Assembly: GCA_036676985.1 (NCBI GenBank)
Contig: JAKFBU010000038.1
Location: 32,001-96,000 of the forward strand
Direction of reading: 5' to 3'
Source: Candidatus Sericytochromatia bacterium
GTDB lineage: Bacteria > Cyanobacteriota > Sericytochromatia > S15B-MN24 > UBA4093
Length of the DNA stretch: 64,000 bases
Shown: positions 5,067 to 26,630 of the stretch, one piece after another
Numbering within the stretch: the stretch's first letter is position 1
Layout of the letters: every line of letters starts with the position of its first letter
Notes under the pieces: generated by a model
The model's database searches: none
Seen by the model: only the letters and a program-made list of their open reading frames with translations
Told to the model about the DNA's origin: nothing
Position numbers and translations under genes: made by a program

Positions 5067-5678
5067 CTAGCGCTTGTCGCGGTCGTCCTTGTCCTGCTTC
5101 TCGTGCTTCTCGGCCAGCCGGCGCATCTGGTACATGGTGCGCGTGAGGCCCACGCCCAGGGCCACGCTGCGCAGATCGCGGATGTCGAGCACGCCCAGCG
5201 AGACGAACTGGTCCAGCATGTTGTAGGCGAGCTCGCCCAGCTGAATCAGCTCCGCGATCCGATCGGCGGCGATCTGCTTGGACTCGTCCTCCTCCGCCCC
5301 CACCTCGAGCTCGGACTCCACCTCGCGCAGCCGCTCCAGGGTCGTGGCCGCCTGGTACAGCTCCCGCTCGCGCAAGACCTTGGAGATCGGACGCCAGATG
5401 TTGCGCTCCGCCACGTAGTACTCGCGGCGCTCGCCAGGCATCGGGTAGCGGCTCACCACCCCCCAGCGCGCCAGCTCCGACAACACCATGCTCACAAGGC
5501 CGCTCGAGATGCCGAGGCCCTGGCGGATGTCCTGGGCCGACAGCGGCTTGGAGCTCAGGTAGAGGAAGGTCCAGACCATCCCGAGGACGCGCTTGAAGCC
5601 CCAGACCTCCATCGCCGCGCCCACGGCCTCGCAGGCGCGGTAGATGGCGGGATCGATGGCGGCGTCTTCTTGGGTCAT
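5067..5678 (-). CDS. GbsR/MarR-family transcriptional regulator
   Basis: ATG 5678 just after the HD-GYP stop; WGFKRVLGMVWTFLYLS..PLSAQDI..LGISSGLVSMVLSEL..WGVV..GERREYY. Confidence 0.85.
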   Translation of the reverse strand: MTQEDAAIDPAIYRACEAVGAAMEVWGFKRVLGMVWTFLYLSSKPLSAQDIRQGLGISSGLVSMVLSELARWGVVSRYPMPGERREYYVAERNIWRPISKVLRERELYQAATTLERLREVESELEVGAEEDESKQIAADRIAELIQLGELAYNMLDQFVSLGVLDIRDLRSVALGVGLTRTMYQMRRLAEKHEKQDKDDRDKR

Positions 5679-5680
5679 GG

Positions 5681-7660
5681 TTAGGCCGGGTTGAGGATGC
5701 GGCCCTGCTCGAAGATGCGGTACTCGATGAAGAGATCGAGCAGCTGGCCGTCGATATGCTCGTCCTTGGCCTCGAAGCGCAGGATGTCGAGCGCGCGATC
5801 GAGCGGCACGGCCTTCTTGTAGGGGCGATCGCTCGCCGTCAGGGCGTCGAAGATGTCGGCGATCGCCATCATCTTGGACTGGATGGGAATCTCGGGGGCC
5901 GCGATGGAGCGCGGATAGCCCTTGCCGTTCAGCTTCTCGTGGTGCGCATAGGCGATCTCGGGCACGCCCTTGAGGTCGTTGGTCCAGGGGATCTGGCTCA
6001 GGAACTTGTAGGTGTGCGAGACGTGGCTCTCGATCTCGAGGCGCTCGTGCGCATCCAGGCTGCCGCGCCGGATGGAGAGCTGCGTGACCTCGTCCCCGCA
6101 CAGGAGATGCTGCTCGTGCCCGTGGATGTCGCGGTAGGTCCGCTGAGCGATCTCCATGAGCCTCAGGAAGCTGCCCTCTTCGAGGACGGTGGGCTCGTTG
6201 GCATCGAGAATCGACTGCAGGAAGGAGTCCAGCTCCATGAGGCCCAGGTTGAACTCGTCGTCGAACCGGCCCTTCTCGAGCATGTAAGCCTCCCGGCCCT
6301 TCTCGAGCACGTACTCGAGGCGCGCGCGGCTGCTCTCGGCTTCGAGCGCCTTCTGCACGAAGGCGAAACGGCTCGTGATGAGGTCGAGCTTCATGGGGTA
6401 GAGCTTCTTGGCCTTGACGAGCACTTCTTCGCGCACGCCGACCTTGCCGAAGTCGTGAAGCAAGGAAGCGTAGCGCACCTCGCGGATCTGCTCGCGCGAG
6501 AAGCGGATGTCCCGGTACTGGCCCACGTCGATCCGGTCGACGAGCTCCGCCAGGCCCACCGTGAGGTTGGCGACGCGCGCGGAGTGACCCGAGGTGGTCG
6601 GGTCTCGGCTTTCAATCGCGGTGACCGAGGCGTTCACGAAGCCTTCGAACAGGCCCTCGATGTTCTTGTAGAGGATGTTGTTCTCGATGGCCACCGCCGC
6701 CTGGCTCGCCAGGCTGAGCACCAGCTCCTCGTTCAGGTGGTCGAAGTGGACGACGTCCTCGTCGACCTTGGAGGGGCTGTCCAGCACCAGGTCGCGGCGC
6801 CGCTTGCGGTTGATGAGCTGCAGAATTCCGATCGTCTCGTTGGACCGGTTGGTCATGGGGATGACGAGCATCGACTTGGTGCGGTAGCCCGTGCGCCGGT
6901 CGAAGGTCCGGTCGAAGTTGTACTCGACGTTCTGGGGCAGCTCGTAGACGTCGTCGAGGTTGAGCGTGTGTCCCGTCAGCGCCACGTAGCCGGCCAGGCT
7001 CTGACGCGAGATCGGCATGCTGAACTCTTTGTAGCCGAAGGGAAAGGTGTCGTTCTGCGACAGCTTGAAGCGCAGGACCTTTTGCTTGTGCTCGTTCTCC
7101 TCGACCAGGTACAGGCTGCCCGCGTCCGCATAGACGATGTCCCGGCTCTTCTTGAGGATGAGGTCCAGGAGCTTGTCCGGGTCGCGCTCGGACGAGAGCG
7201 CGATGCCGATGGAGTTGAGCTCCTGGAGCTTGATCGAGTACTCCTTGAGCTCGTGGCGGGAGCGCTCGGTCTCGAGCTGGTTGAGGATGAAGATGAAGGC
7301 GTTGGAGACCAGCTTGGCGAAGCCCTTGGAGTGGTAAGGCTCGCGCAGGTAGCCCCACAGGAGGTCTTCGGGCACGTCCTTGGGGGCCTCGGCCCCTTCG
7401 GGATAGGAGCAGACGAAGATGCCCGAGGTACCCCAGAGGGCTGCGATCTCGCGCAACAAGGAGGCGTCGCCCGACTCCATCAGGTAGCGGTCGACAATGA
7501 GGAGCTTGGGCACGTGCCGCGGCTCGTAGCGAAGCTCGGCCAGGGTGTCGACGACCCGCCACGTCACCCCATGGGCCTCTTGGGCCCGCAGGATGTCGAG
7601 GTTCAGATTCTGGCTCGAGCTGTACAGTATGCGCTCGGCCGTCTCGTCGATCGGCTGCAC
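5681..7660 (-). CDS. GAF + HD-GYP cyclic di-GMP phosphodiesterase
   Basis: GAF (FDRRTGYRTKSMLVIPM, QLINR), TSGHSARV, LHDFGK, HHEKLNGKGYP, ADIFDALT..DRPYK. Confidence 0.9.
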   Translation of the reverse strand: MQPIDETAERILYSSSQNLNLDILRAQEAHGVTWRVVDTLAELRYEPRHVPKLLIVDRYLMESGDASLLREIAALWGTSGIFVCSYPEGAEAPKDVPEDLLWGYLREPYHSKGFAKLVSNAFIFILNQLETERSRHELKEYSIKLQELNSIGIALSSERDPDKLLDLILKKSRDIVYADAGSLYLVEENEHKQKVLRFKLSQNDTFPFGYKEFSMPISRQSLAGYVALTGHTLNLDDVYELPQNVEYNFDRTFDRRTGYRTKSMLVIPMTNRSNETIGILQLINRKRRRDLVLDSPSKVDEDVVHFDHLNEELVLSLASQAAVAIENNILYKNIEGLFEGFVNASVTAIESRDPTTSGHSARVANLTVGLAELVDRIDVGQYRDIRFSREQIREVRYASLLHDFGKVGVREEVLVKAKKLYPMKLDLITSRFAFVQKALEAESSRARLEYVLEKGREAYMLEKGRFDDEFNLGLMELDSFLQSILDANEPTVLEEGSFLRLMEIAQRTYRDIHGHEQHLLCGDEVTQLSIRRGSLDAHERLEIESHVSHTYKFLSQIPWTNDLKGVPEIAYAHHEKLNGKGYPRSIAAPEIPIQSKMMAIADIFDALTASDRPYKKAVPLDRALDILRFEAKDEHIDGQLLDLFIEYRIFEQGRILNPA

Positions 7661-14210: not shown

Positions 14211-15572
14211 CTAGCGCTGGATGGCCTTGCTGGCGTCGAGGATGCCGTGGCCGTAGTAGACGGGGTCCGCCCCCCCGGCGGTCGCGGCGAGCAGGATCTG
14301 CTCCATGAGGGCCGGCTTGAGGGGCCCGTGCGCCGAGCGAGCGAGCGCCGCCACGCCCGAGACGTAGGCCGTGGCCATGCTGGTGCCGCCGAGGAACATG
14401 TGGGGCGCGGGCCCCACCTTGAAGCCCTGGTCCTCGTGGGGCAGGGCCTGGTTGCTCCAGGTGCTGAGCACCAGGTCGGTCTTGTGCACCACGGGCGTGT
14501 AGGTCTCGGGATCGAGGCCCATGCCGCCGCCGGGCGCGGCCACGTCGAGGTAGCCCTGGCCGAAGTTCGAGTAGAAGGCGTAATTCGTGGGGTTCTGGCC
14601 GTTGAAGGGGCCGACGGCTCCGACCACGATGCCGGTTCCGGCTTCGGCGGGCAGCACGAAGTGGCCGTCGATGGGGATCTGCTGGCCGAAGTTGCCCGCG
14701 GCGATCACGACCACCGCCCCGCGCGACTGCGCATGGCGGATGGCCGCGGCGTAGGCCCCCTTGAGCCGCCCGCCCGTCGCGTTCTTCTCCCAGAGCCCCT
14801 CGAGGCTCAGGTTGATGACGGAGGCGCCCTGGCTCACGGCGTAGTCGATGCCGCGGATGATGCCGTAGTCGTTGCCCTGGCCGGTGGCGTCGAGCACCTT
14901 GATGGGCAGGATCGTGGCCTGCGGGGCCACGCCCGCGACGCCGTACCCGTTGCGGGCGGCGGCGATGATGCCCGCCACGTGGCTGCCGTGCCCGTTGCGA
15001 TCCACGAGGTCCGGCTCGTGCGGCACGAAGGAGCGCCCGTGGGCGAGATCCAGGTTGGGAGCGAGGTCCTGGTTGGTGGCGTCCACCCCCGAGTCGAGGA
15101 CGGCCACGACGGTGCCGCGGCCCTGGAAGCCCGCCTCCCAGGCGGAGCGGACCTTGCCGACGTCGAGGCCCCACTGGTAGCCGGAGAGGGGCTCGCCCTC
15201 GGGGCCGGGCTTGGCGGGGAGGTCGGCGTCGAGCGACGTGTCGCTGGCCGCGGAGGCCAGGATCGTCCGGCCGAGCATAGGGCGCGGGGCGGTCAGCGGG
15301 GCGCTGTCCACCCCGGGCGTCTCGGCCAGGCGCTGCATGAAGTTGGGGTCGGTGGTCTGGACCACCATGCCGCCCAGGCCGTCCAGGCTCTCCGTCACCT
15401 TGCCGCCGGCGGCGACGATGGCCGCGGCCACCTCCTCGGGGCTCCGCGCGGGATCGGGGAGCACCACGTAGCTCGTGGGGGTGGCGGGAGGCGCCCCCGG
15501 CACGCTGCAGGCGGCCAGGAGGGCGGCGATCGCCAGGGGGGGAAGTCGGCGTAGCCTCTGGAACGTGCCCAC
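14211..15572 (-). CDS. S8 subtilisin-family serine protease, lipoprotein
   Basis: GAGGAG RBS/GTG 15572; lipobox LLAAC; VAVLDSG, HGSHVAG, AAGN, GTSMA. Confidence 0.9.
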   Translation of the reverse strand: MGTFQRLRRLPPLAIAALLAACSVPGAPPATPTSYVVLPDPARSPEEVAAAIVAAGGKVTESLDGLGGMVVQTTDPNFMQRLAETPGVDSAPLTAPRPMLGRTILASAASDTSLDADLPAKPGPEGEPLSGYQWGLDVGKVRSAWEAGFQGRGTVVAVLDSGVDATNQDLAPNLDLAHGRSFVPHEPDLVDRNGHGSHVAGIIAAARNGYGVAGVAPQATILPIKVLDATGQGNDYGIIRGIDYAVSQGASVINLSLEGLWEKNATGGRLKGAYAAAIRHAQSRGAVVVIAAGNFGQQIPIDGHFVLPAEAGTGIVVGAVGPFNGQNPTNYAFYSNFGQGYLDVAAPGGGMGLDPETYTPVVHKTDLVLSTWSNQALPHEDQGFKVGPAPHMFLGGTSMATAYVSGVAALARSAHGPLKPALMEQILLAATAGGADPVYYGHGILDASKAIQR

Positions 15573-15668
15573 GCGATCTCTCCTCAAAAAAACACTCGAG
15601 CGATGACCCACCGGGGTTATACATCGCTCGAGCGTAGAGTTAACGAGAGAAACGAGGGTTATTTGGGC

Positions 15669-17126
15669 CTATTCGGCGTGCACCGCGTTGTAGACGTTGA
15701 GGCGACCGTGGCCGTAGTTCGCGTCGAAGCCCTTGGCGCCGAGGTCGTCGGCCGTCTTGTAGAGGAGCTGCGCCAGCTGCTCGGGCTTCATCTTGCCCTT
15801 CTCCGCGAGGACCAGGGCGGCGGCACCCGCCACGTGCGGGGCGGCCATGCTGGTGCCCGCCAGGTACATGAAGGGGCTCGGGCCCACCGGGAAGACGCCG
15901 AAGAGCAGCTGATCCAGGGCGTGGGTGCTCCAGGTGCTCAGGACCATGTCCTCCATCGCGACCGGGAAGACGCCGAACTCGGGGTCGTAGGCCACGCCGC
16001 CGCCGGGGGCGGCCAGGTCCGTGATCTTGCGGCCGTGGTCACTGTAGAGCGCCGGCGCGTCGAAGTCCTGCTGGCCGACCGGGCCCGTGGCCGAGACGCC
16101 CACGTTCTGGCTGCCGGCGTCGACAGGCAGGTAGACGTTGCCGGAGGTGTCCGCGTTCTCGCCGTAGTTGCCGGTGGCCGACACGACGAAGGTGCCCTGC
16201 TTGGTGGCGTAGTCGATGGCCGCGCGGAAGCCCTTGCTCATGATCTTGGCTTCCTTGCTGCCGACCGGGAAGCGGTCCTCGAGGCTCATGTTGATGACGT
16301 CGGCGCCCGCGTCGGCGGCGTAGACGATGCCCGCCATGATGCCGAAGTTGTCGCCAAAGCCCGAGGCGTCGAGCACCTTGACGCTGATGAGGGTGGTCTT
16401 GGGGGCCACGCCCACCACGCCGAAGCCGTTCTGGTTGGCGCCGATGATGCCCGCCACGTGGCTGCCGTGGCCGTTGAGATCCAGGACGCCGACCGCGGCG
16501 TCGGGGCCGTAGTCGATGAAGGACTTGGACAGCTGCGGGTCGAAGTTCTCTGCGAACTCGGGGTTGTCGAAGTCGATGCCGGTGTCGAGCACGGCCACCT
16601 TGACGGCGGGGCTGCCCAGCTTATCCTCGGCCTCGGTCTTGTCCGCGCCGATCTGGTTCATGTTCCAGCTGAAGCTCATGGTCCGGGGCTCGCTGCCGGG
16701 GGGCATCAGCTCGGCGATCTTGGGATTGCCGGCCGCGACCGAGCCGCTCAGGCGGAAGGCCTCGAAGTCCTTCATGGCGCCGTCGACGCCCTTGATGGCC
16801 TGGGCCTTGGCGAGGAAGTCCGCGTCCGTCGAGGCGACGCCGATGATGCCGAGCTCGCTGGGCAGGTTGCCGACCAGCTCGCCGCCGGCGGCCACCAGGG
16901 CGCTGGTCACCTGGGCGGCGTCAGCGTCCGCCTGCAGGCTCACGAGATACTGCTGCTTGCCCTGGTGCAGGGCGTCTCGCCGAGCCGGGGCCGCCTGATC
17001 GAACGAAGCGCCGGCGATCTGGCCGACCGAGGGGCGGTTGACGTTGGAGGGAGCGGCGTTGCAACCCAGCAATAAGGATGTTGCCAGCAGCGTGGGGATA
17101 GCGAAGCGACGAATAGAAGCGCTCAT
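15669..17126 (-). CDS. S8 subtilisin-family serine protease, lipoprotein (paralog of neighbour)
   Basis: Lipobox LLLGC; VAVLDTG, HGSHVAG, ATGN, GTSMAAPHVAG. Confidence 0.9.
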   Translation of the reverse strand: MSASIRRFAIPTLLATSLLLGCNAAPSNVNRPSVGQIAGASFDQAAPARRDALHQGKQQYLVSLQADADAAQVTSALVAAGGELVGNLPSELGIIGVASTDADFLAKAQAIKGVDGAMKDFEAFRLSGSVAAGNPKIAELMPPGSEPRTMSFSWNMNQIGADKTEAEDKLGSPAVKVAVLDTGIDFDNPEFAENFDPQLSKSFIDYGPDAAVGVLDLNGHGSHVAGIIGANQNGFGVVGVAPKTTLISVKVLDASGFGDNFGIMAGIVYAADAGADVINMSLEDRFPVGSKEAKIMSKGFRAAIDYATKQGTFVVSATGNYGENADTSGNVYLPVDAGSQNVGVSATGPVGQQDFDAPALYSDHGRKITDLAAPGGGVAYDPEFGVFPVAMEDMVLSTWSTHALDQLLFGVFPVGPSPFMYLAGTSMAAPHVAGAAALVLAEKGKMKPEQLAQLLYKTADDLGAKGFDANYGHGRLNVYNAVHAE

Positions 17127-17261: not shown

Positions 17262-18599
17262 CTAGAGGCCCAGGTGCTTGCCCCAGAACCGGAAGGCCAG
17301 GACGGCGAGCAACCCGACCGTGCCCAGGCCGAGCAGACCGTAGATGGTCAGGATGGCGGCCTCCCGGGGGGGGACGGACCCGGTGGGGCGACCGGTCAGT
17401 TTCTTCCCTATATAGGAAAAGGCCCTGGCCTGGAGGTTGGGGAGGGCGAGCAGATCCTCCGTCAGGTAGTAGCCGTCCAGGCGGGCGAACGGGATGAGGT
17501 TGAAGGCGCCGGCGGCCACGCTGATGATGGCGAGGTCCAGGGCCAGGGTCCGTCCTCCGGTCGTGAGGGGCAGCCAGGCCCAGGCCAGCATGCACAGGGC
17601 GGCCAGGCCGAACTGGTAGTAAAGGCCCGCCAGGCTCACGGCGACTCGGCCCCTGAGTGACAGGCGATGGGCTTCGCTGGTGTCGCAGAAGCCGAAGGGC
17701 ATGCCGATGAACAGCATGACGCCCATCTGGCGCACGGTGGCCCCGAGGGCGGTGGAGACGGCCGCATGGCCGAACTCATGCACGGCCAGGGAGAGGAAGA
17801 GGAGCGCGTAGATGCGCCCCAGGTGCAGGGAGTCGTACTGGTTGGAGAGCGCCTGCACCTCGGCCATGACCTCCGAGGCATGCAAGACGCCGAGTGCGGC
17901 GGCCGTGAGGGCGATGGGCAGCCAGACCGCCGAGAGGAAGCCGAGCGAGCTCGTGGGCTTCAGCACCGGCAGGCACGCATGCAGGAGGCGGCTCGGGTCC
18001 CAGAGGGGCAGCCGCCAGATGAGCCAGTCGAGGCCGGAACGACGGCGGCCGGTGGCGGTGGGAGCGTCCGGATCCTGCAGGAGGCCGGCGTCCCAGAGCC
18101 GCGCCCCGAGGTCCGCGACCTGACCCGGCGTGATCAGCAGCCCCTGGGAGTGCCAGACGGCGTTCAGGATCTCGGCGTAGGTCCGGGAGGTGGCGATCGC
18201 CTCGGCCACCGCGAACTCGGCGGCATCGAAGCGCATGTAGACGCCGAGCGGGGCGACACCCGCCACGATGAGCTCGCGCTGTCCCTCCATGACCGGGCTG
18301 GTGCGCAGGTCCGGGTGCCATGCGAGGCGCTCCAAGGACGACCAAACGGGGTGTGCGGCCAGGCGCTGTGCCTCGAGGGCCGCATCGATCTGGGGCTTGG
18401 TACAGACGCCCGCCCCTACGAGCAGCTCCCCGAGCCGGGTTGACTCCCGTTTTTGTCGTTCCAGGGCAAACGACACGTCGTCGGAAGAGCAATATCCCTG
18501 CCTGATCAGCAGCTCACCAAGCCGAAAGACGCCTGGTCGGAACTCCAGGAAGGCCTCTGCGAGAGGAGGAAGGGGCGAGCCGCCTGAAAGGGTCGTCAT
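17262..18599 (-). CDS. M50 (site-2-like) membrane metalloprotease with N-terminal tandem MshEN motif and RRE-like domain
   Basis: RLGELLIRQGYCSSDDVSFALERQ-KREST-RLGELLVGAGVCTKPQIDAALEAQ; GVYMRFDAAEFAVAEAI..TYAEI..LWDAGLL; HEFGH; NLIPFARLDG; several TM helices. Confidence 0.85.
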   Translation of the reverse strand: MTTLSGGSPLPPLAEAFLEFRPGVFRLGELLIRQGYCSSDDVSFALERQKRESTRLGELLVGAGVCTKPQIDAALEAQRLAAHPVWSSLERLAWHPDLRTSPVMEGQRELIVAGVAPLGVYMRFDAAEFAVAEAIATSRTYAEILNAVWHSQGLLITPGQVADLGARLWDAGLLQDPDAPTATGRRRSGLDWLIWRLPLWDPSRLLHACLPVLKPTSSLGFLSAVWLPIALTAAALGVLHASEVMAEVQALSNQYDSLHLGRIYALLFLSLAVHEFGHAAVSTALGATVRQMGVMLFIGMPFGFCDTSEAHRLSLRGRVAVSLAGLYYQFGLAALCMLAWAWLPLTTGGRTLALDLAIISVAAGAFNLIPFARLDGYYLTEDLLALPNLQARAFSYIGKKLTGRPTGSVPPREAAILTIYGLLGLGTVGLLAVLAFRFWGKHLGL

Positions 18600-19038: not shown

Positions 19039-19074
19039 GGCAGGGGGCGCTTGCCCCCTGCCATTTTCGTTTTT
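19039..19074 (+). terminator. Intrinsic terminator/attenuator between precursor and radical SAM gene
   Basis: GGCAGGGGGC-GCTT-GCCCCCTGCC 10-bp stem followed by ATTTTCGTTTTT. Confidence 0.75.
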
Positions 19075-19086
19075 AAAGGATCGCTC

Positions 19087-20145
19087 ATGGCCGTGTCGTA
19101 CGATCGCGAGTTCTGCGTCCAGATCTCGGTGACCAACAACTGCAACCTTTCCTGCCGTCACTGCTACCGGGATGTGCGCAAGGCCTTCGACGACGAGTTC
19201 AGCACCGCCGAGCTGATCACGCTCCTGCACCAGGTCCGCGACCTGGCGGCCGACCTCGATCGCGAGCCCAACGTCGTCTTCAGCGGCGGCGAGCCCCTCT
19301 CCCGCCCGGATTTGGGACTGCTCGTCCGGGTGGCGCGCTCCCTGGGCATCGAGACGCACGTCAACACCAACGGCACGCTCGTCACCGAGGAGCTGGCCGC
19401 CGCCCTGCGCGAGTGGGGGATCCTCGCGGTGCAGGTGTCGCTGGACGGCCCGACCCCCGAGAGCCATGACCGGATCCGCGGACGCGGCAACTTCGAGCGC
19501 ACGCTCGTGGGCGTCCGCCACCTCCTGGCCGCAGGCATCGAGGTCATGTACAAGGTGACGCTCATGCCGGGCGTCAACACCGCGCTCATCCCCGAGTTCT
19601 ACTCGCTCGCCAACCGCGAGGGCGTGCACATCCTGTCCTTCGCGCGCCTGATCGCCATCGGTCCGGGCGCTCGCCTGCAACAGATGTCCATGCAGGAGTA
19701 CCGGGACACCCTGGAGGCGATCGCCCAGGAGGCCCACCGCTCGCCCTTCACCCGCACCGAGATCCGGGACGCGGGCTTCGACCGGGCCTTCTCCCTCGAC
19801 TTCGGGCAGAATTTCCAGAGCGAGGAAGGCCTCTCCTTCATGGCCATCGACGCCAACGGCACGGCCTATGCCGGCCGGCGCACGCCCATCCAGCTCGGCA
19901 ACTGGCGCGAGTCGTCGCTCGCCGACCTGTGGCGCCATCCGGTGCTCGAAGAGCTCAGGAGCCGCCGCATCACGGGCAAGTGCCAGGGCTGCGAGCTCTT
20001 TTCCGTCTGCGGCGGGGGCTCGCGAGCGGCCGCCTACGGCGCGACCGGGGACTACATGGCCCCCGATCCCCACTGCTGGTACGAGCCCGGGGTGGGCGAA
20101 CGAGTGACGGAGGTGGCTGCGGTCGCCCTCCCGGTGGTAAGCTAG
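19087..20145 (+). CDS. Radical SAM enzyme with partial SPASM domain
   Basis: AAGGA RBS/ATG 19087; CNLSCRHC, SGGEP, TNG, VSLDG; C-terminal CQGC-x5-C...DPHC. Confidence 0.9.
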   Translation: MAVSYDREFCVQISVTNNCNLSCRHCYRDVRKAFDDEFSTAELITLLHQVRDLAADLDREPNVVFSGGEPLSRPDLGLLVRVARSLGIETHVNTNGTLVTEELAAALREWGILAVQVSLDGPTPESHDRIRGRGNFERTLVGVRHLLAAGIEVMYKVTLMPGVNTALIPEFYSLANREGVHILSFARLIAIGPGARLQQMSMQEYRDTLEAIAQEAHRSPFTRTEIRDAGFDRAFSLDFGQNFQSEEGLSFMAIDANGTAYAGRRTPIQLGNWRESSLADLWRHPVLEELRSRRITGKCQGCELFSVCGGGSRAAAYGATGDYMAPDPHCWYEPGVGERVTEVAAVALPVVS

Positions 20146-20149
20146 TGGC

Positions 20150-21280
20150 ATGCCACGCACGCTAGGAATCGATCTCGGCAACAGCAAGGTCAAGTACGTC
20201 GCCCTGGAGCTCACGGGGGACCGTCCGACCGCGCGCTATGCCACCTTCCCCCTGCCCTACACGCCCGAGCTGATGCCCGATCGCAGCACCGACTTCGAGG
20301 CGGGGCTCGTCACGACGTCGGCGGCCTTCCTCTCGGAGCTGGGCCTGTCCGCGGGCGCGTTCGACCAGGCGGTGGTCGCGACCAGCCACTTCTACAGCTA
20401 TCCCACCTTCAGCCAGGCGCTGCACCACACCGCGCGCCTCACGCAGGCGATCTGGGGCGATGCCGTCCGGCTCATCGGAGCGGACGGCAAGCTGTACTCC
20501 ACGAGCGCGGCCCTGGAGCGGACGGGGTCCGAGGTGGTGCGCTTCGCGGCCACCAAGTTCTGGGGCTCGGCGTACCTCGCGAGCAAGCTCATCCAGCGGG
20601 GCCTCTCGGTGGACGTGGGGACGACCTCGACGGATGCGATCGCCATCGTCGACGGAGTCATCGATCCGGCGTCCCAGCACGATCCCGACCGCTTCAACCT
20701 GGGCCGGCTGGAGAGCCAGCGACTCATGTGGTACGGCATGACGGCGACCCCGCTCGACTACGCGGCGCGCCGGGCCTCGGTGGGCGATCGCTCGTACTAC
20801 CTCTATCCGCGCATGGCGCAGACCGAGTGCGTGACGCGCATCCTGGACCTGGTCCCGGAGGAGCTCGCGCGCCGGCATGCCTACTTCGGGCGCTATCCCT
20901 CGCGGGAGGAGGCCCTGTTCGAGCTCGCCCAGGCCTTCGGTCTGGACCGGGAGCTGTTGAGCGACCGGGATCTGGTCGATCTGGCGGGCAACTTGCATCG
21001 CCAGCTGATCGCCCGGGTGGCCGAGGGCGTGGCCCGGGTCATGGCCCAGGCGGGCCTGGGGCATCCGGGGTCGATCCAGGCGGCCGTGATGGGCCTGGGC
21101 AAGGACGCGCTGGCGCGCCAGGCGTTGCTGGCCTGCGGGGTCAAGCACGACCGGATCGTGGACGTCGAGGACGTCATCGGGCCGGAGCTCGCGGCGGTGT
21201 CCACGGCCTACGGCGTGGCCCTCAAGGGCCTCGAGGAGGTCGCGGGGCGCTCCTTGGGCTTCGAGGCGGCTCGGACCTAG
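20150..21280 (+). CDS. Hydantoinase/oxoprolinase-family (ASKHA fold) protein, MfnF-like
   Basis: LGIDLGNSKVK and VDVGTTSTDAIAIVDG phosphate motifs, RL..RLMWYGMTATP; size and motif spacing recall methanofuran MfnF. Confidence 0.7.
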   Translation: MPRTLGIDLGNSKVKYVALELTGDRPTARYATFPLPYTPELMPDRSTDFEAGLVTTSAAFLSELGLSAGAFDQAVVATSHFYSYPTFSQALHHTARLTQAIWGDAVRLIGADGKLYSTSAALERTGSEVVRFAATKFWGSAYLASKLIQRGLSVDVGTTSTDAIAIVDGVIDPASQHDPDRFNLGRLESQRLMWYGMTATPLDYAARRASVGDRSYYLYPRMAQTECVTRILDLVPEELARRHAYFGRYPSREEALFELAQAFGLDRELLSDRDLVDLAGNLHRQLIARVAEGVARVMAQAGLGHPGSIQAAVMGLGKDALARQALLACGVKHDRIVDVEDVIGPELAAVSTAYGVALKGLEEVAGRSLGFEAART

Positions 21281-21415: not shown

Positions 21416-22054
21416 ATGTTCATGGCCAGGGTAGTGATCGTCGATGACCTCCAGGAGACCATCGATATCCTGGCCCCCCCCCTTGTCAGCCAGGGGCACG
21501 AGGTGTTGACGGACATCAGCCCGATTGACTTCGAGCGGGTCATGGCCTTCAAACCCGACGTGCTCACGCTCGACCTGTACCGTCGGCTCGAAGCGTTCGA
21601 CCGCCCGATTCAAAACATCGAGGCCGACGTGATCGGCTTCAAACCCCTCGTGGAGATGGAGCAGTACCCCGCCATCAGCGTCATTCCCATCATCCTGATT
21701 GGCAACTGCCTGCAGGAGAAGGACATTCCCACGTCCGTCAACTACGACTTGTTCCTCAGCCTTCCGGGGGATGTCAAGCTCTACTTCCCGAAGGTGGTCG
21801 AGATCGCCACCACGGTGAAGACGCGCCGCCAGATCAGCGACTACGTCTGTCCCCACTGCGGGAGCCGGCTGACGTTCACGGGGAAACGGAGAACGGACTT
21901 CTTTTGCCCCCGCTGCCACACCGCCGTCGCCCTCATCGACGACGAAAGCTGCATTGCACACACCAGTGACGGGCGCAAGCTTCCCTGCACCCTCGACATG
22001 TTGCGGCCACCCAAGGCGCTGCCCTTGAAATCCAGGAACAGACCGTCCGACTAG
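21416..22054 (+). CDS. Atypical receiver domain fused to zinc ribbon
   Basis: RVVIVDD..KPDVLTLD..IPIILIG receiver pattern; CPHC-x15-CPRC. Confidence 0.7.
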   Translation: MFMARVVIVDDLQETIDILAPPLVSQGHEVLTDISPIDFERVMAFKPDVLTLDLYRRLEAFDRPIQNIEADVIGFKPLVEMEQYPAISVIPIILIGNCLQEKDIPTSVNYDLFLSLPGDVKLYFPKVVEIATTVKTRRQISDYVCPHCGSRLTFTGKRRTDFFCPRCHTAVALIDDESCIAHTSDGRKLPCTLDMLRPPKALPLKSRNRPSD

Positions 22055-22106: not shown

Positions 22107-24524
22107 CTAGTTGGCCTTGAGCGTGACGAGCGTGATGTCGTCGAACTGGTCCGTCCCCTCCGAGAAGCGACGGATGGCCGACAGGATGGCCGTCTCCACC
22201 TCCTGGGCGGGCGACGTCACGTTGGCCGCCACGATCTCTGCCAGGCGCTCCTCGCCGAACTGTTCGCTGGTAGGGTTGAGGGCGTCCTCCGCCCCGTCGC
22301 TGTAGAAGACGATGAGCTCGCCTTCCTTCAGCGTCGCCCGGTTCTCCTCGTAGCCGATGGACGGGAACATGCCGAGCGAGACGCCCTTGGCCTCCAGCCG
22401 ACCCGTCGTGCCGGCCCGCGTCTCCATGGGCAGCGGGTTGCCGGCGTTTGAGAAGACGAGGCTGCGATCGCGCGAGTCGTAGACTGCGTAGAACGCCGTC
22501 ACGAACATCTTCTTGGACGGACGGTTGAGGTAGATGAGCTCGTTGGCCTTGGCCATCACGTCTGCCGAGGAGTAGTTGTCGCGGGCGATGGAGCGGAAGA
22601 TGACGAGGGTCATGGCCATCAGGAGGGCCGCCGGCACGCCCTTGCCCGACACGTCCCCGATGAGGATGCCCAGCCGGTGCTCGTCCACCGGGATGATGTC
22701 GTAGAAGTCGCCGCCCACCTCGAGCGCCGGGATCGAGGTGGCCGAGAACTCGACGCCGTCCAGGGCGGGGAGGCTCGTCCGCAGGAGGCCCGACTGGACC
22801 TCGTGGGCGATTTCCAGCTCGCGCTTGAGACGCTCCTGGCTCGCGAGCTGGCCGAACAGCTGGGCGTTCTTGACCCACAGGGCGAGCTGCTGGCAGAGGC
22901 TCACGAGCAGCGTGCGGTCCGTGAAGGTGTAGTTGAGGTCGCTCTTGCGCGGACCCACGAGCACGAGGCCGACCAGCTCGTCCTTGAGGCGCAGGGGCAA
23001 GGCGGTGGCCTGCAGCAGGCCGTCCACGTCCAGGGGCTCGGTGGTGACCGAGAGCTGCTGATCGGCGAGCAAGGTCCTGAGGGCAGGGTGCTCCGGGCTC
23101 AGCTCGATGCGCTGCCCGTACTCGAGTCCGAGGCTCTCGCGCTGCACGAGGTTGCCGGTGGCCTGGTCGCGCAAGAGGACCGCCACGTACTGGGGATAGA
23201 GCGCGAACTCGATGGTCTTGACGAAGAGGCGCAAGAGCTCGGTGGCGTCGAAGGTCTCGCGGGCCCGGTCGCCGAAGTCCGTCAGCAGCTGGGCGAGGTT
23301 GTAGCCGGTGCGGAAGAAGAGCTTGTCGACGAGGACCTTGGTGCGATCGCGCAAGGGAGCGAACGCTACGGCCACCGCGCCGGTCGCGACGATGTTGGTC
23401 CACTCGGAGCCCGTGCCGAACAGGCTGCGGATGCCCGCCGTCAGGATGAAGTAGGCCGACGTCAAGGCCGCCGTCACGATGGCGTAGGTGACGGTGCGCT
23501 TGACGATGACGTCGATGTCGAAGAGCTTGTGGCGGACGATGGTGTAGGCGACCGCCGCCGGGAAGATGACCATGCCGAAGAAGGTGTACTCGCCCCCCGG
23601 AAGGGTGGTGCCCATGGTCATCAGGCCGTTGACGATGATGACGGGCAGAAAGGCGATGAGGGCCCCCCACAGGATGAGGTTGGCCTGGCTCTTGACCTGA
23701 GGCGGGCTCGTGCGGCTGAAGCGGGCCCAGATGGAGGCGATGGGCACGATGAGGGTCGCGCCCGAGCCGATGAGCGTCAGGAACTCGAAGGCCACGGGCC
23801 ACATGTCCGGCCGGTAGAAGCTGAACAGGATGTAGCCCATGAACAGGAAGCCCGCGACGAGGTTGGCGGGCACGATCCAGGGGAACCGCTCGATGACGGG
23901 CATCTTGCGGGGCATGAGGAACGCCAGGTTGATGGCGAAGGCCCCCAGGAGCGCAAAGGCCTGGTTGTGCGGGAAGGTCGTGAAGACCTGGGTCGTGATG
24001 CCGTCGAAGTTGGTGACGAAGAACGTCCCGAAGAAGATGCAGAACAGGAGGTGCGCGCGGGCGACGGGATCGCCCGGCTTGACCAAGGAGACGAAGATGC
24101 CGATGAAGAAGTGGAAGAAGCCCACCACCCAGAACGCCAGGAAGAAGCCCACGTAGTCGAAGAGCGTGAAGCGCTGGGTCGGGATCGAGAGGTCCTGCTT
24201 CGCGAAGCCGTCGCCGGAGCGCCGCTCCACCGTGTAGCGCAACGGCGTGCCGGGGGGATGGGCCGCGACGATCCGGTAGACTTCCTGTCCGTCGGCCACC
24301 GGCGCGCCGTCGACGGCCACGACCCGGTCCTTCTGCTTGATCCCCGCCTGGATGCCCGTCCAGCGGGACGACGCCAGGGAGTCGACGGTGTTGTTGCGCA
24401 GGACGACGAAGCCGGGGAAGGGGCGATTGATCCAGGTGAAGGAGAGCAACAGACACGCTATCGAAATTATCACGAGCGAGCCCATGGTCGCCCAGAATAA
24501 GGCCTTGGTTAGCTTCTGCTGCAT
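22107..24524 (-). CDS. PDZ/multi-TM/GAF PP2C (SpoIIE/RsbU-family) phosphatase
   Basis: GIKQKDRVVAVDG (PDZ), ~8 TM helices, VGGDFYD, IGDVSGKGVPAAL, YSDG, DDITL. Confidence 0.9.
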   Translation of the reverse strand: MQQKLTKALFWATMGSLVIISIACLLLSFTWINRPFPGFVVLRNNTVDSLASSRWTGIQAGIKQKDRVVAVDGAPVADGQEVYRIVAAHPPGTPLRYTVERRSGDGFAKQDLSIPTQRFTLFDYVGFFLAFWVVGFFHFFIGIFVSLVKPGDPVARAHLLFCIFFGTFFVTNFDGITTQVFTTFPHNQAFALLGAFAINLAFLMPRKMPVIERFPWIVPANLVAGFLFMGYILFSFYRPDMWPVAFEFLTLIGSGATLIVPIASIWARFSRTSPPQVKSQANLILWGALIAFLPVIIVNGLMTMGTTLPGGEYTFFGMVIFPAAVAYTIVRHKLFDIDVIVKRTVTYAIVTAALTSAYFILTAGIRSLFGTGSEWTNIVATGAVAVAFAPLRDRTKVLVDKLFFRTGYNLAQLLTDFGDRARETFDATELLRLFVKTIEFALYPQYVAVLLRDQATGNLVQRESLGLEYGQRIELSPEHPALRTLLADQQLSVTTEPLDVDGLLQATALPLRLKDELVGLVLVGPRKSDLNYTFTDRTLLVSLCQQLALWVKNAQLFGQLASQERLKRELEIAHEVQSGLLRTSLPALDGVEFSATSIPALEVGGDFYDIIPVDEHRLGILIGDVSGKGVPAALLMAMTLVIFRSIARDNYSSADVMAKANELIYLNRPSKKMFVTAFYAVYDSRDRSLVFSNAGNPLPMETRAGTTGRLEAKGVSLGMFPSIGYEENRATLKEGELIVFYSDGAEDALNPTSEQFGEERLAEIVAANVTSPAQEVETAILSAIRRFSEGTDQFDDITLVTLKAN

Positions 24525-24652
24525 CTGATCGCTTTCTATCCCAGTATTTATAGGCCTTATACCATGGGAGATTGGAAAGTTATCGTGACAAAAACACGGC
24601 TTGCGTGAGGATGCGCGGTAGTTCAGGCCCCCTTCGCGGGTATGATCTCCCC

Positions 24653-25723
24653 ATGGCCAGCACCGCGATCGACTCCCGCCTCGTCTCTAGCCTCCTGGGC
24701 TTTCTCATGGCCCAGGCGGCCGACGACTTCTCCGAGGCCGTCGAGCTGCAGGGAGCCGTTCCGGGCTATCCCCTCTTGATCGGAGCGACGTTCCCGCTGT
24801 CGCTCATCGCCTCGGCCCTCGACCGGGCGGCGCCCTCCGACCCGGAGGTGCAGGCCGTCGTGGCCCGTCTCGTGGAGGCGCTGGTCGGCTTCGGCGACGA
24901 GGACGGCTGGCGCTACTTCACGATCTGTCCGGACATCCCGCCCGATGCCGACGACCTGGCGCAGGTAGTCGCCATCCTGGCCGAGCGCCGCCACCCCCAG
25001 GCGGCCATGCTGCTGGCAGGCCCGTTGCGCCGCCTCGCGCGCAACGCGCAGGGGACGGGGCGCTACCGGACCTGGCTCGTGGACACGCCGGAAGAGGCGG
25101 CGCAGGCGGACTTCACCTGGGCGGCCGGCCGGGATCCCGTGCATCCCGAGGTGGTGGCGAACGTCCTGTACGCGCTGTGGCGCCTCGATCGCGAGGCCTG
25201 GCGGGACGACATTCTCGCGGGCGCCCGCTGGCTCTTGACCCGGCAACAGGCGGGACTCTGGGCCAGCTACTGGTACTACGGCCACGGCTACGGGACGCAT
25301 CTGGTCCTGCGGCTCTTGGCGGCGGTCGCCGAGACCTGGCCGGGCGAGGTCGCGGGCCTCCCAGACGCGCAGGCCGCGGCCCGGGAGTCGCTACTCGCGG
25401 CCCAGGAGGCGCTGGGCGGCTGGAAGGTGGCGCAAGCGCCCCTGGGCCTCTTGGAGCTCGGTGAAGCTTGGGAGTCCGGCCCGGAGCGGGCGCTCGAAAC
25501 AGCCCTTTGCCTGTCGGCCCTGACATATTTGCCGGTGGATGACACCGTACGCATGGCCCAGGAACGGGCCATTGCCTATCTCGCCTCGATCCAGGAGCCG
25601 GACGGAGGCTTCGCGGCCGAACCGTACTACTTTACGATGGGTCGTATTCCGCACCAGAGCAGGTGTTTGACCGCTGCTGCCGTTTTGTCGGCCGCGGCGT
25701 TCGTGGGTCATGGGGGCAGTTAG
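24653..25723 (+). CDS. Squalene-hopene cyclase/prenyltransferase-repeat protein (single class II beta-domain)
   Basis: PPDADDLA (DxDD) plus QW-like repeats QQAGLW, QEALGGW, QEPDGGF. Confidence 0.7.
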   Translation: MASTAIDSRLVSSLLGFLMAQAADDFSEAVELQGAVPGYPLLIGATFPLSLIASALDRAAPSDPEVQAVVARLVEALVGFGDEDGWRYFTICPDIPPDADDLAQVVAILAERRHPQAAMLLAGPLRRLARNAQGTGRYRTWLVDTPEEAAQADFTWAAGRDPVHPEVVANVLYALWRLDREAWRDDILAGARWLLTRQQAGLWASYWYYGHGYGTHLVLRLLAAVAETWPGEVAGLPDAQAAARESLLAAQEALGGWKVAQAPLGLLELGEAWESGPERALETALCLSALTYLPVDDTVRMAQERAIAYLASIQEPDGGFAAEPYYFTMGRIPHQSRCLTAAAVLSAAAFVGHGGS

Positions 25724-25839
25724 CCTGCGTCTGGTAGGGGGTATGGGAAGCAAGGGGGAAGAAAGCTAGGTCATTTCCTGCGCGGCAGCGTATAATGACA
25801 GCAGCAACCCAATCGTACCAACCGGGAGAGGGATCTTCG

Positions 25840-26190
25840 TTGGAGACATTCAAGCAAAGCATCGAAACAGCTGGTGATATCACCTTCCTGAAGCCCGAGG
25901 GGTTCATCGACGCCCACACGGCTCCCGAGCTCGAGAAGGTGCTCAATGACCTGCTGGCCCAACACCGCTACAAGGTGGTGCTGGATTGCCAGAACATGGA
26001 GTACATCTCGAGCGCGGGTCTCGGCGTCCTCATGGGGGCCATCAGCACCTTCCGTCAGAACAAGGGCGACATGAAGCTCGTCCAGCTCCCGCCCAAGGTG
26101 TTCAAGGTCTTCGACCTGCTCGGCTTCACCAAGCTGTTCGAGATCTTCGATTCGCGCGGCGAGGCGATCGCCGCTTTCCAGGAGAGCTAA
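25840..26190 (+). CDS. STAS-domain anti-sigma-factor antagonist
   Basis: GFIDAHTAPELE, YISSAGLGVL, VFDLLGF; TTG start after GGAGAGG (the upstream ATG 25795 overlaps a TATAAT box). Confidence 0.9.
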   Translation: METFKQSIETAGDITFLKPEGFIDAHTAPELEKVLNDLLAQHRYKVVLDCQNMEYISSAGLGVLMGAISTFRQNKGDMKLVQLPPKVFKVFDLLGFTKLFEIFDSRGEAIAAFQES

Positions 26191-26195
26191 CGTCC

Positions 26196-26630
26196 ATGGG
26201 CGAGTCCAGCCAGTTCGAGGCCACCTTCCGCAACGACACGGCGAATCTCTACGAGATTCGCACCTTCGTGCGCGAAAAGGCGCTTGCGATGGGATTCCCC
26301 GAGGAGTCCATCGACAACATCGAGCTGGCCGTGGACGAGGCGTGCGCCAACATCATGGAGCACGCCTATCCGCCCGGCGTCTTGGAGCCGGGGCTCCACC
26401 TGATCATCCAGTACGAGGACGACAAGTTCACGGTGATCATCTCCGATCGCGGGGAGACCTTCGATCCGGGCAAGATCAAGCCGCCGGTGATGAAGGAGTA
26501 CATCTCCGAGTACCGGGTGGGCGGCCTCGGCATCTACCTCATGCGCACCCTGATGGACCAGGTGGATTACCACATCCAGCCGGGCATCAAGAACGAGGTC
26601 CGCATGGTCAAGTTCCTGCCTGCCGTCTAG
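26196..26630 (+). CDS. RsbW/SpoIIAB-like anti-sigma factor kinase
   Basis: IELAVDEACANIMEHAY, ISDRG, GGLGIYLMRTLMD. Confidence 0.9.
   Translation: MGESSQFEATFRNDTANLYEIRTFVREKALAMGFPEESIDNIELAVDEACANIMEHAYPPGVLEPGLHLIIQYEDDKFTVIISDRGETFDPGKIKPPVMKEYISEYRVGGLGIYLMRTLMDQVDYHIQPGIKNEVRMVKFLPAV

Follow-up and report, generated by a model that had tools for sequence, protein, structure and literature searches.

What does a hydantoinase-A-like protein do when its gene stands directly behind a radical S-adenosylmethionine (radical SAM) gene and the gene of a small, Cys-ended peptide? The question is raised by a 64,000-nucleotide stretch of DNA (the window) from Candidatus Sericytochromatia bacterium (assembly GCA_036676985.1, contig JAKFBU010000038.1, positions 32,001 to 96,000), in which the open reading frame (ORF) at 20150-21280 encodes a protein of the ASKHA fold. 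A preliminary description of this DNA took the protein for an MfnF-like enzyme of methanofuran biosynthesis that had been recruited to modify a ribosomal peptide, with either a Tyr within the sequence SYGY or the C-terminal Cys as the target. The best explanation overall, and the one we lean towards, is that the protein represents an undescribed ASKHA family, a sister to MfnF/Orf9, that modifies the C-terminal Cys of the NHLP-like peptide encoded upstream. In what follows we examine the placement of the protein, its pairing with the peptide, and the chemistry that it may perform.

The motifs and the spacing on which the preliminary description relied are all present. The translation contains GIDLG at residues 6-10, DVGTTSTD at residues 155-162 and RLESQRLMWYGMTATP at residues 186-201, and the radical SAM gene stops at TAG 20143-20145, which leaves a gap of 4 nt before the ATG at 20150. 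That the ORF is a true, conserved gene rather than a random frame is shown by 29 homologues (28-90% identity) retrieved from a collection of 5.8 billion proteins and by the 1035 proteins that the ASKHA profile matched with E <= 1e-3 in a library of 1.84 billion. An AlphaFold2 model based on an alignment of 89 sequences has a mean pLDDT of 96.6 and a pTM of 0.93. Pfam Hydantoinase_A (PF01968) matches residues 139-358 with 29.1 bits against a gathering score of 22.9, which makes the protein a member at the level of the domain; no Hydant_A_N domain was detected in the Pfam scan. The best named NCBIfam matches are TIGR03123 (83.3 bits against a cut-off of 244.1) and the MfnF equivalog model NF040623 (49.4 bits against a cut-off of 520, and 48.7 bits in the genome search), and both fall far under their cut-offs. 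No curated NCBIfam model is passed by the protein; the same library does hold a model, NF038399, for the peptides of the type-B cassettes described below.

The separation from MfnF is also seen among the relatives of the protein and in its phylogeny. The NCBIfam models were run on 79 of the 150 listed library matches, with fragments and the lowest-ranked rows left out. All 20 of the closest relatives among those scanned (at least 172 bits to the ASKHA profile) gave TIGR03123 scores of 36-82 bits or no match, while many lower-ranked relatives passed TIGR03123 at 250-385 bits and one, P0231, passed the MfnF model at 595 bits. For the phylogeny, 70 rows were given to a quick IQ-TREE run, namely 33 genome-locus ORFs, 25 representatives from metagenomes, 5 intermediates and 7 TIGR03123/MfnF proteins picked from the 150 listed matches. 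The 58 rows of the protein's own family lie on one side of a branch with an SH-aLRT value of 99, and the 7 true TIGR03123/MfnF rows lie on the opposite side, also with a value of 99.

By sequence, the nearest solved structure is 3c0b (E 8e-9), and by fold the nearest are 3cet and 3c0b (Foldseek E 2e-22, TMq 0.73, TMt 0.82, 18-20% identity). We take 3c0b/3cet to be an MfnF orthologue because P0231, which passes the MfnF model, matches 3c0b at 435 bits. The remaining fold matches are generic ASKHA proteins with E ~1e-8, and the ESM Atlas returned generic hydantoinase clusters only. Across the family and the MfnF/TIGR03123 rows, D155, G157 and G196 are invariant, and G6, K15, R186, T200 and D266 are shared at >=90%; the phosphate-1 (GIDLGN), phosphate-2 (DVGTTSTD) and GLG motifs of the ASKHA superfamily are conserved within the family. 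The protein is thus related to MfnF/Orf9 over its whole length and by an ASKHA/hydantoinase-A-like fold, with K15, D155, G157, R186, G196, T200 and D266 in common, and it belongs to an unnamed sister family rather than being MfnF itself. The comparison of phylogeny and structure that the preliminary description had proposed leaves its assignment half standing: among characterised proteins MfnF is indeed the nearest, in sequence as in fold, while the notion of a recruited MfnF gives way to that of a separate family with its own clade.

If the protein were a true MfnF/Orf9 with a part in making methanofuran or methylofuran, it would be natural that the MfnF and TIGR03123 models are its best named matches and that an MfnF orthologue is its best solved fold. 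This reading is contradicted by the scores and the clade described above, and by the gene content of the source genome (4.68 Mb, 100% complete by markers, 5.09% contamination). Searches of this genome found no match to MfnB/4HFCP_synth (PF04476), no match to the methenyl-tetrahydromethanopterin (methenyl-H4MPT) cyclohydrolase MCH (PF02289), no second match to the MfnF model and, for MfnE (NF040622), a best score of 18.9 bits against a cut-off of 300. The same searches were positive where expected, in methanogens for the methanofuran genes and in 6 of 14 genomes for hydantoinase B. The earlier remark that the window holds no other methanofuran or H4MPT genes can be extended to the whole genome for the genes searched (MfnB, MCH, MfnE and a second MfnF). 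We consider a true MfnF/Orf9 to be ruled out, its probability being next to nil. A hydantoinase of the HyuA/HyuB type is likewise ruled out, as the genome gave no match to hydantoinase B (PF02538). Among the enzymes that share PF01968 with our protein (hydantoinase A, 5-oxoprolinase A, acetone and acetophenone carboxylases), the domain and the ASKHA motifs are common property, but the protein described here has neither a B partner nor a detected Hydant_A_N domain and resembles them in fold much more weakly than it resembles MfnF.

The peptide encoded upstream scores 29.3 bits with NF038399, below the cut-off of 40, and 18.1 bits with the Nif11 leader model. A small Cys-ended ORF lies just upstream of the ASKHA gene and on the same strand in 16/16 peptide-linked genomes or contigs, which come from Sericytochromatia, a Planctomycetota metagenome-assembled genome (MAG), a Polyangiaceae MAG and one metagenome contig. 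The terminal residue is Cys in all 18 peptides from these sources, a number that includes two unlinked second copies (G106, G109); as a background, a terminal Cys is found in 72 of the 2452 small ORFs of the loci (2.9%, the true peptides counted in). An alignment of 11 peptides has only three invariant columns, L24, L47 and the terminal C73. The Cys is preceded by S, H, D, G or A; tails are variable in sequence and 2 to ~15 residues long. Because nothing beyond L24, L47 and C73 is invariant and the tail otherwise varies, the terminal Cys is the site that matters. Of the two target residues that had been proposed, the Cys is the one that gains strong support, while the Tyr of SYGY is ruled out by its lack of conservation, as the corresponding positions read SWRF, AALH, AWQY and LVAL in relatives. 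NF038399, run across 401 genomes sampled from the phylum, gave nothing over its cut-off, and only the second peptide copies in G106 and G109 emerged.

The 401 genomes were also searched with the family profile at E <= 1e-20. Matches were found in 35 genomes, all within the window's class, of which 3 were weak (79-99 bits), and no other family of the phylum had a match. By family within the class (numbered f1 to f7, with f1 the family of the window), the matches amount to 9/9 in f1, 5/8 in f2, 1/1 in f3, 0/8 in f4, 13/13 in f5 (two copies in most), 5/6 in f6 and 1/1 in f7. The window proteins were compared by tblastn with 30 loci having 1.5 kb flanks and with 11 longer stretches. The order peptide, radical SAM, ASKHA was found in 10 Sericytochromatia genomes, namely in the f1 genera g1, g2 and g4 and in three f2 genomes, and the cassette is flanked by an S8 peptidase gene on one side and a SpoIIE-type phosphatase gene on the other. 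In f1 the synteny of S8 peptidase, cassette, PP2C phosphatase and STAS genes spans more than 10 kb.

The f1 genus g3 separates the peptide from the radical SAM enzyme. In its three genomes, one of which is 99% complete, no radical SAM homologue was found genome-wide at E <= 1e-10, and the ASKHA gene is intact at the syntenic place in 3/3 species. There, a 72-aa ORF ending in PREGC overlaps the ASKHA start by 7 nt. The g3 ASKHA genes stand on a very long branch of 1.84 changes per column, and that they are intact nonetheless counts in favour of the proposed role.

Three more distant members of the family lie outside the class and were found on a metagenome contig (L048) and on MAG contigs of Planctomycetota (L079) and Polyangiaceae (L080), the latter two with a four-sequence alignment. 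These loci have in common a four-gene cassette, here called type B, which consists of a nucleoside 2-deoxyribosyltransferase-like (NDT-like) gene, a peptide gene, the ASKHA gene and a gene for a large HExxH...EEQ protein. The type-B peptides have ~74-80 residues, end in RRAAC and directly precede the ASKHA gene, and those of L048 and L080 pass NF038399 (cut-off 40) with 54.6 and 48.6 bits. The window's radical SAM, M50 and S8 proteins gave no tblastn match in these three loci. The only enzyme that all the Cys-ended peptides have in common is the ASKHA protein. The tie between the enzyme and a ribosomal peptide, which the preliminary description had proposed from a single locus, turns out to be stronger than could be known then, since the pairing persists in lineages without the radical SAM enzyme.

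The radical SAM gene adjoins the ASKHA gene in 10 of the 30 loci and is lacking at the locus in 6 of the 16 peptide-linked genomes or contigs (the three g3 genomes, L048, L079 and L080), and on this ground its role as an obligate partner is ruled out. The conserved partner of the ASKHA gene is the NHLP-like peptide, not the radical SAM enzyme. The same count bears on the proposal that the ASKHA protein is a non-catalytic helper, either a leader-binding scaffold or an ATP-driven activator of the HgdC/BcrAD type, for a radical SAM enzyme that has no RiPP recognition element (RRE; RiPP, ribosomally synthesized peptide with post-translational modifications). Such a helper would make sense of the 4-nt spacing and of a radical SAM domain that starts at about residue 13 of 352, leaving no room for an N-terminal RRE, and the HgdC-type activators 1hux and 4ehu are among the distant fold matches (E ~1e-7). 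Yet the ASKHA gene persists with the peptide in the six genomes or contigs just named, the catalytic-type polar residues K15, D155, R186, T200 and D266 are conserved, and two publications report that leaders of the NHLP/Nif11 type engage enzymes directly as folded domains (PMC12537861, PMC12455567). The family also has no invariant Cys, hence no bridging Fe-S cluster, and an HgdC-type Fe-S activator ATPase is ruled out for this reason. Taken as a whole, the helper proposal seems to us very improbable.

Could the pairing be a matter of inherited gene order? Under this alternative, the protein would be a small-metabolite enzyme that is unrelated to the peptide and merely sits within a conserved syntenic block. 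The class-wide distribution (35 of the 401 genomes, with all 13 genomes of f5 and five of the six of f6), the f5 and f6 loci that have no adjacent peptide or radical SAM gene, and the more than 10 kb of synteny in f1, by which some of the adjacency must be inherited, all agree with it. Inherited synteny cannot explain the pairing, however, because the pairing is seen again outside the class (Planctomycetota, Polyangiaceae, a metagenome contig), where surroundings and accessory genes differ, and because it outlasts the loss of the radical SAM gene in g3, where stop and start overlap. We consider a metabolite enzyme of this kind to be improbable.

The ASKHA protein and the peptide were also submitted to complex prediction, which gave a score of 0.39 (runs of 0.39, 0.60 and 0.38), whereas none of the three controls scored above 0.00. 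Contacts agree between the runs to at least 49%, and the partner pLDDT is 66 or higher. In calibration, 58 of the 80 solved complexes and 2 of the 110 mismatched pairs reached the mark; at scores of 0.60 or less, only 7 of the 80 did so, together with both of the passing mismatches. These counts hold only roughly here since custom alignments were used. The predicted complex is weak support and a small addition to the evidence from gene order.

With respect to the reaction, we think it probable that the ASKHA enzyme acts on the terminal Cys of the peptide. MfnF alkylates the side-chain oxygen of Tyr or tyramine within a gamma-glutamyl dipeptide and uses a diphosphate-activated donor. By analogy, the enzyme would transfer an alkyl group from a phosphate- or diphosphate-activated donor to the terminal Cys thiol, the peptide acting as a folded scaffold whose flexible tail offers its last residue to the enzyme. 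S-alkylation of the MfnF type is preferred because the acceptor of MfnF is a short peptide-like molecule with its nucleophile on the terminal residue; still, we put it forward only tentatively. According to PMC8141765, MfnF/Orf9 couples F1-PP with a dipeptide (Glu-Tyr or Glu-tyramine), and this peptide-like acceptor, with its nucleophile on the terminal residue, parallels the Cys-ended peptide. The systems differ in that the partner is here a ribosomal peptide, the proposed nucleophile is a thiol, and no methanofuran or H4MPT genes were found.

The main competing chemistry is an ATP-dependent activation, in which the enzyme would transfer phosphate to the terminal carboxylate or to the final backbone amide in the manner of hydantoinase A/oxoprolinase A, acetone carboxylase and acetate kinase, and so prime the terminal Cys for cyclisation (e.g. 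to a thiazoline-type ring), amidation or ligation. The Hydantoinase_A match above the gathering score, the conserved phosphate-1, phosphate-2 and GLG motifs, and the use of ATP by the next-ranking group of fold matches (MK0840 with nucleotide bound, acetone carboxylase 5svc, acetophenone carboxylase 5l9w) are all in keeping with it, and chemistry on a free alpha-carboxylate would better explain why Cys is last in 18/18 peptides. But MfnF is far closer to the protein (E 2e-22, TM 0.73) than the ATP-using members are (E ~1e-8, TM 0.4-0.57), the genome has no hydantoinase B partner, and the same motifs are kept in the MfnF/TIGR03123 rows, so that they are no proof of ATP use. We regard ATP-dependent activation as rather unlikely.

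Several observations weigh against a peptide-modifying alkyltransferase as proposed here. Some concern the chemistry. S-alkylation alone does not account for Cys as the very last residue, the retained phosphate motifs fit an ATP-using enzyme equally well, and MfnF chemistry is not safely transferable because the identity to MfnF is only 18-20%; MfnF itself is not known to require ATP. No gene for an activated donor was seen in the window cassette, and MfnB, MfnE and the NDT-like gene of the type-B cassette were not found in the source genome. No transporter was seen in the cassette, even though the S8 peptidases look like exported lipoproteins. The complex prediction passed weakly and no interface was reported for it. 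Other observations concern the family. In the sister order, none of the 21 loci examined (f5, f6) has a small Cys-ended ORF or a radical SAM gene adjoining the ASKHA gene, and a search of four f5/f6 genomes with the peptide profile gave nothing convincing (best f5 match E 0.06). As a whole, then, the ASKHA family is not confined to peptides, and a small molecule may have been its ancestral substrate.

These peptide-less paralogues have surroundings of their own. In five f5 loci (L042, L043, L047, L027, L035) the ASKHA gene follows dnaG, rpoD and an uncharacterised gene, and in the f6 locus L045 it adjoins DapF, as identified with Pfam. The ASKHA gene is placed between the genes of a gamma-glutamyltranspeptidase (GGT) and of a Ser/Thr protein kinase in 6/6 loci of genus g16 (L015, L017, L019-L022) and in 0/5 of the other paralogue-B loci; this adjacency was not relied on as a functional clue, since it is seen in one genus only.

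The coordinates of the cassette and of the other features are given in Table 1.

Table 1. Coordinates of the features discussed; positions are those of the window unless a locus is named
Feature	Position	Strand	Remarks
Second S8 peptidase	14211..15611	-	Tandem paralogue of the next; Peptidase_S8 153.8 bits
Subtilisin-like S8 peptidase	15669..17126	-	Peptidase_S8 170.8 bits; candidate processing protease
Intramembrane HExxH metalloprotease (M50, daptide-type)	17262..18599	-	Divergent from the peptide gene; N-terminal MshE-like cyclic di-GMP (c-di-GMP) domain
NHLP/Nif11-like peptide, 73 aa	18794..19015	+	Helical N-terminal domain, Gly/Ala-rich tail ending in AAAGGSC; proposed substrate/scaffold
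G+C-rich hairpin and T-run	19039..19062	+	Between the peptide and radical SAM genes; 10 pairs, 9 of them G-C
Radical SAM/SPASM enzyme, 352 aa from ATG 19087	19087..20145	+	Lineage-specific accessory
ASKHA-fold enzyme, 376 aa	20150..21280	+	Separate family, sister to MfnF/Orf9 (TIGR03123); proposed peptide Cys modifier
212-aa ORF	21416-22054	+	Between the ASKHA and phosphatase genes
Membrane SpoIIE/PP2C phosphatase	22107-24524	-	Partner-switching set
383-aa protein	24572-25723	+	Weak match to squalene-hopene-cyclase C-terminal domain (alpha/alpha toroid), 31.6 bits
STAS antagonist	25795-26190	+	Partner-switching set
HATPase_c_2 anti-sigma-type kinase	26196-26630	+	Partner-switching set
HExxH...EEQ proteins	L079:7116-10763; L080:7041-9386		Type-B cassettes
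NDT-like genes (PF05014, 34-36 bits)	L048:6081-6620; L080:5287-5760; L079 ~5266-5700		Precede the peptide gene
Second peptide copy, unlinked	L077:1432-1689	-	Cys-ended; G106/G109 set
Second peptide copy, unlinked	L078:1486-1713	+	Cys-ended; G106/G109 set

The layout of the peptide gene is of interest in its own right. A strong ribosome-binding site (AAGAGGAGG) stands 5' of the gene, and the hairpin that follows it looks like an intrinsic terminator or attenuator. An equivalent hairpin and T-run of different sequence was found 3' of the peptide stop in 7/7 f1 genomes, and none was seen in the two f2 or three type-B loci examined. A hairpin between the genes of a precursor and of an enzyme is the usual way to obtain more precursor than enzyme, and the combination of a strong ribosome-binding site with a conserved hairpin has the appearance of a precursor-type gene layout, which favours the peptide as a substrate.

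The radical SAM protein matches Pfam Radical_SAM (101.6 bits) and SPASM (26.5 bits), and its NCBIfam matches (TIGR04053, 187; AhbD, 172; MftC, 126.7 against a cut-off of 265; also NirJ) are all far under their cut-offs. Its orthologues, which have at least 42% identity, are sharply set apart from generic relatives at ~35%. AhbD and MftC perform oxidative decarboxylations. In the window lineage this translationally coupled enzyme may add a second step on the same tail, and from its nearest families one might guess at an oxidative decarboxylation of the terminal Cys or at another C-H activation.

The M50 protease would be a candidate for the processing or release of the product, together with the S8 peptidases. 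It matches Peptidase_M50 with 33.5 bits, its N-terminus matches the c-di-GMP motif NF053729 with 50.9 bits against a cut-off of 38, and it is syntenic in f1 (G043, G046, G109) and was not found in the f2 or g3 loci. Its closest model is that of the daptide protease (daptide_HExxH, NF041824), which fits a role in cleaving a modified peptide; it differs from the daptide enzyme in its score (158.6 bits against a cut-off of 300), in its extra c-di-GMP domain and in its restriction to f1, with no other daptide genes seen. An S8 gene flanks the cassette in the f1, f2 and g3 loci. Both S8 peptidases of the window start with lipoprotein-like signals when inspected by eye (LLAAC, LLLGC), which would imply that they are extracytoplasmic proteases. 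In the type-B cassettes the HExxH...EEQ protein carries a C-terminal cyclic-nucleotide-binding (cNMP-binding) domain in the two complete copies (63 and 68 bits). A protease with a domain for a nucleotide second messenger is thus present in both cassette types (MshEN on the M50 protease of the window, a cNMP-binding domain on the unrelated, metalloprotease-like type-B protein), which suggests that the processing of the peptide is regulated. The NDT-like enzyme of the type-B cassettes could supply or transfer a sugar-derived group.

Downstream of the cassette, the 212-aa ORF has weak zinc-ribbon matches and an N-terminus that is receiver-like by eye. It had no tblastn counterpart in the 11 longer related loci and looks like a recent insertion in this genus. 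The partner-switching set is syntenic with the cassette in the f1, f2 and g3 loci, and the 383-aa protein is syntenic in f1 and g3. The alpha/alpha toroid fold class also holds the beta subunits of protein prenyltransferases and the LanC cyclases, which act on Cys thiols.

When the genes are considered together, a precursor of a leader family is encoded with modifying enzymes and a peptidase, and the set is conserved across genomes, as is general for RiPP-type maturation cassettes. By analogy, the system is like a RiPP or a peptide-derived-cofactor pathway, with a scaffold peptide, tailoring enzymes and proteases. Products that are derived from peptides and built on a fixed C-terminal residue include mycofactocin (MftA/MftC), pyrroloquinoline quinone (PQQ) and those of pearlin-type scaffolds, e.g. 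3-thiaglutamate. The cassette resembles these systems in its small scaffold peptide with a fixed last residue, its radical SAM/SPASM enzyme in some lineages, its dedicated proteases and its lineage-wide conservation (9/9 in f1). It differs from them in that no RRE protein of the MftB/PqqD type, no PEARL and no MNIO enzyme is present, and none of them is known to use an ASKHA protein. Membership in the mycofactocin system is contradicted by the MftC score (126.7 against 265 bits), by a peptide that ends in Cys rather than Val-Tyr and by the lack of an RRE protein in the list of window ORFs. The literature was searched as well. Among the publications listed, none was found that combines hydantoinase with RiPP, precursor-peptide or NHLP themes; in the part of the matching publications that was covered, no peptide modification by an ASKHA protein was found (one publication had been picked up on account of an author's name and a ParM-like domain); and the searches returned nothing usable on the mechanism of MfnF, on radical SAM enzymes of Sericytochromatia or on Franean1_4349.

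What the cassette makes can be outlined speculatively. The product may be an as yet undescribed small molecule, or a signal with a lipid or heteroaryl tag, built on the C-terminal Cys of the scaffold peptide by thioether chemistry borrowed from methanofuran biosynthesis and released under the control of a second messenger, an outcome that we hold to be rather doubtful. The gating would be exerted by c-di-GMP on the M50 protease in the window lineage and, for Planctomycetota and Myxococcota, by a cyclic nucleotide on their HExxH protein.

What is known of the MfnF/Orf9 branch within the ASKHA superfamily is a single reaction, which belongs to a single coenzyme pathway, and we describe here a sister family that is tied by gene order to Cys-ended ribosomal peptides in at least three phyla. 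This pairing points to a peptide modification, and to a class-defining enzyme, found in none of the model libraries or literature searched. If the proposal is true, the peptide and ASKHA pair would be a new class of ribosomal peptide modification, to which the radical SAM and NDT-like enzymes are alternative additions. The two-gene form of g3, with only the peptide and the enzyme, is a minimal and directly testable system. The class that carries the cassette is the non-photosynthetic sister of the cyanobacteria and is known almost only from metagenomes. The cassette occurs in all sampled genomes of the family to which the window belongs, and its product may matter for the physiology or the signalling of these bacteria.

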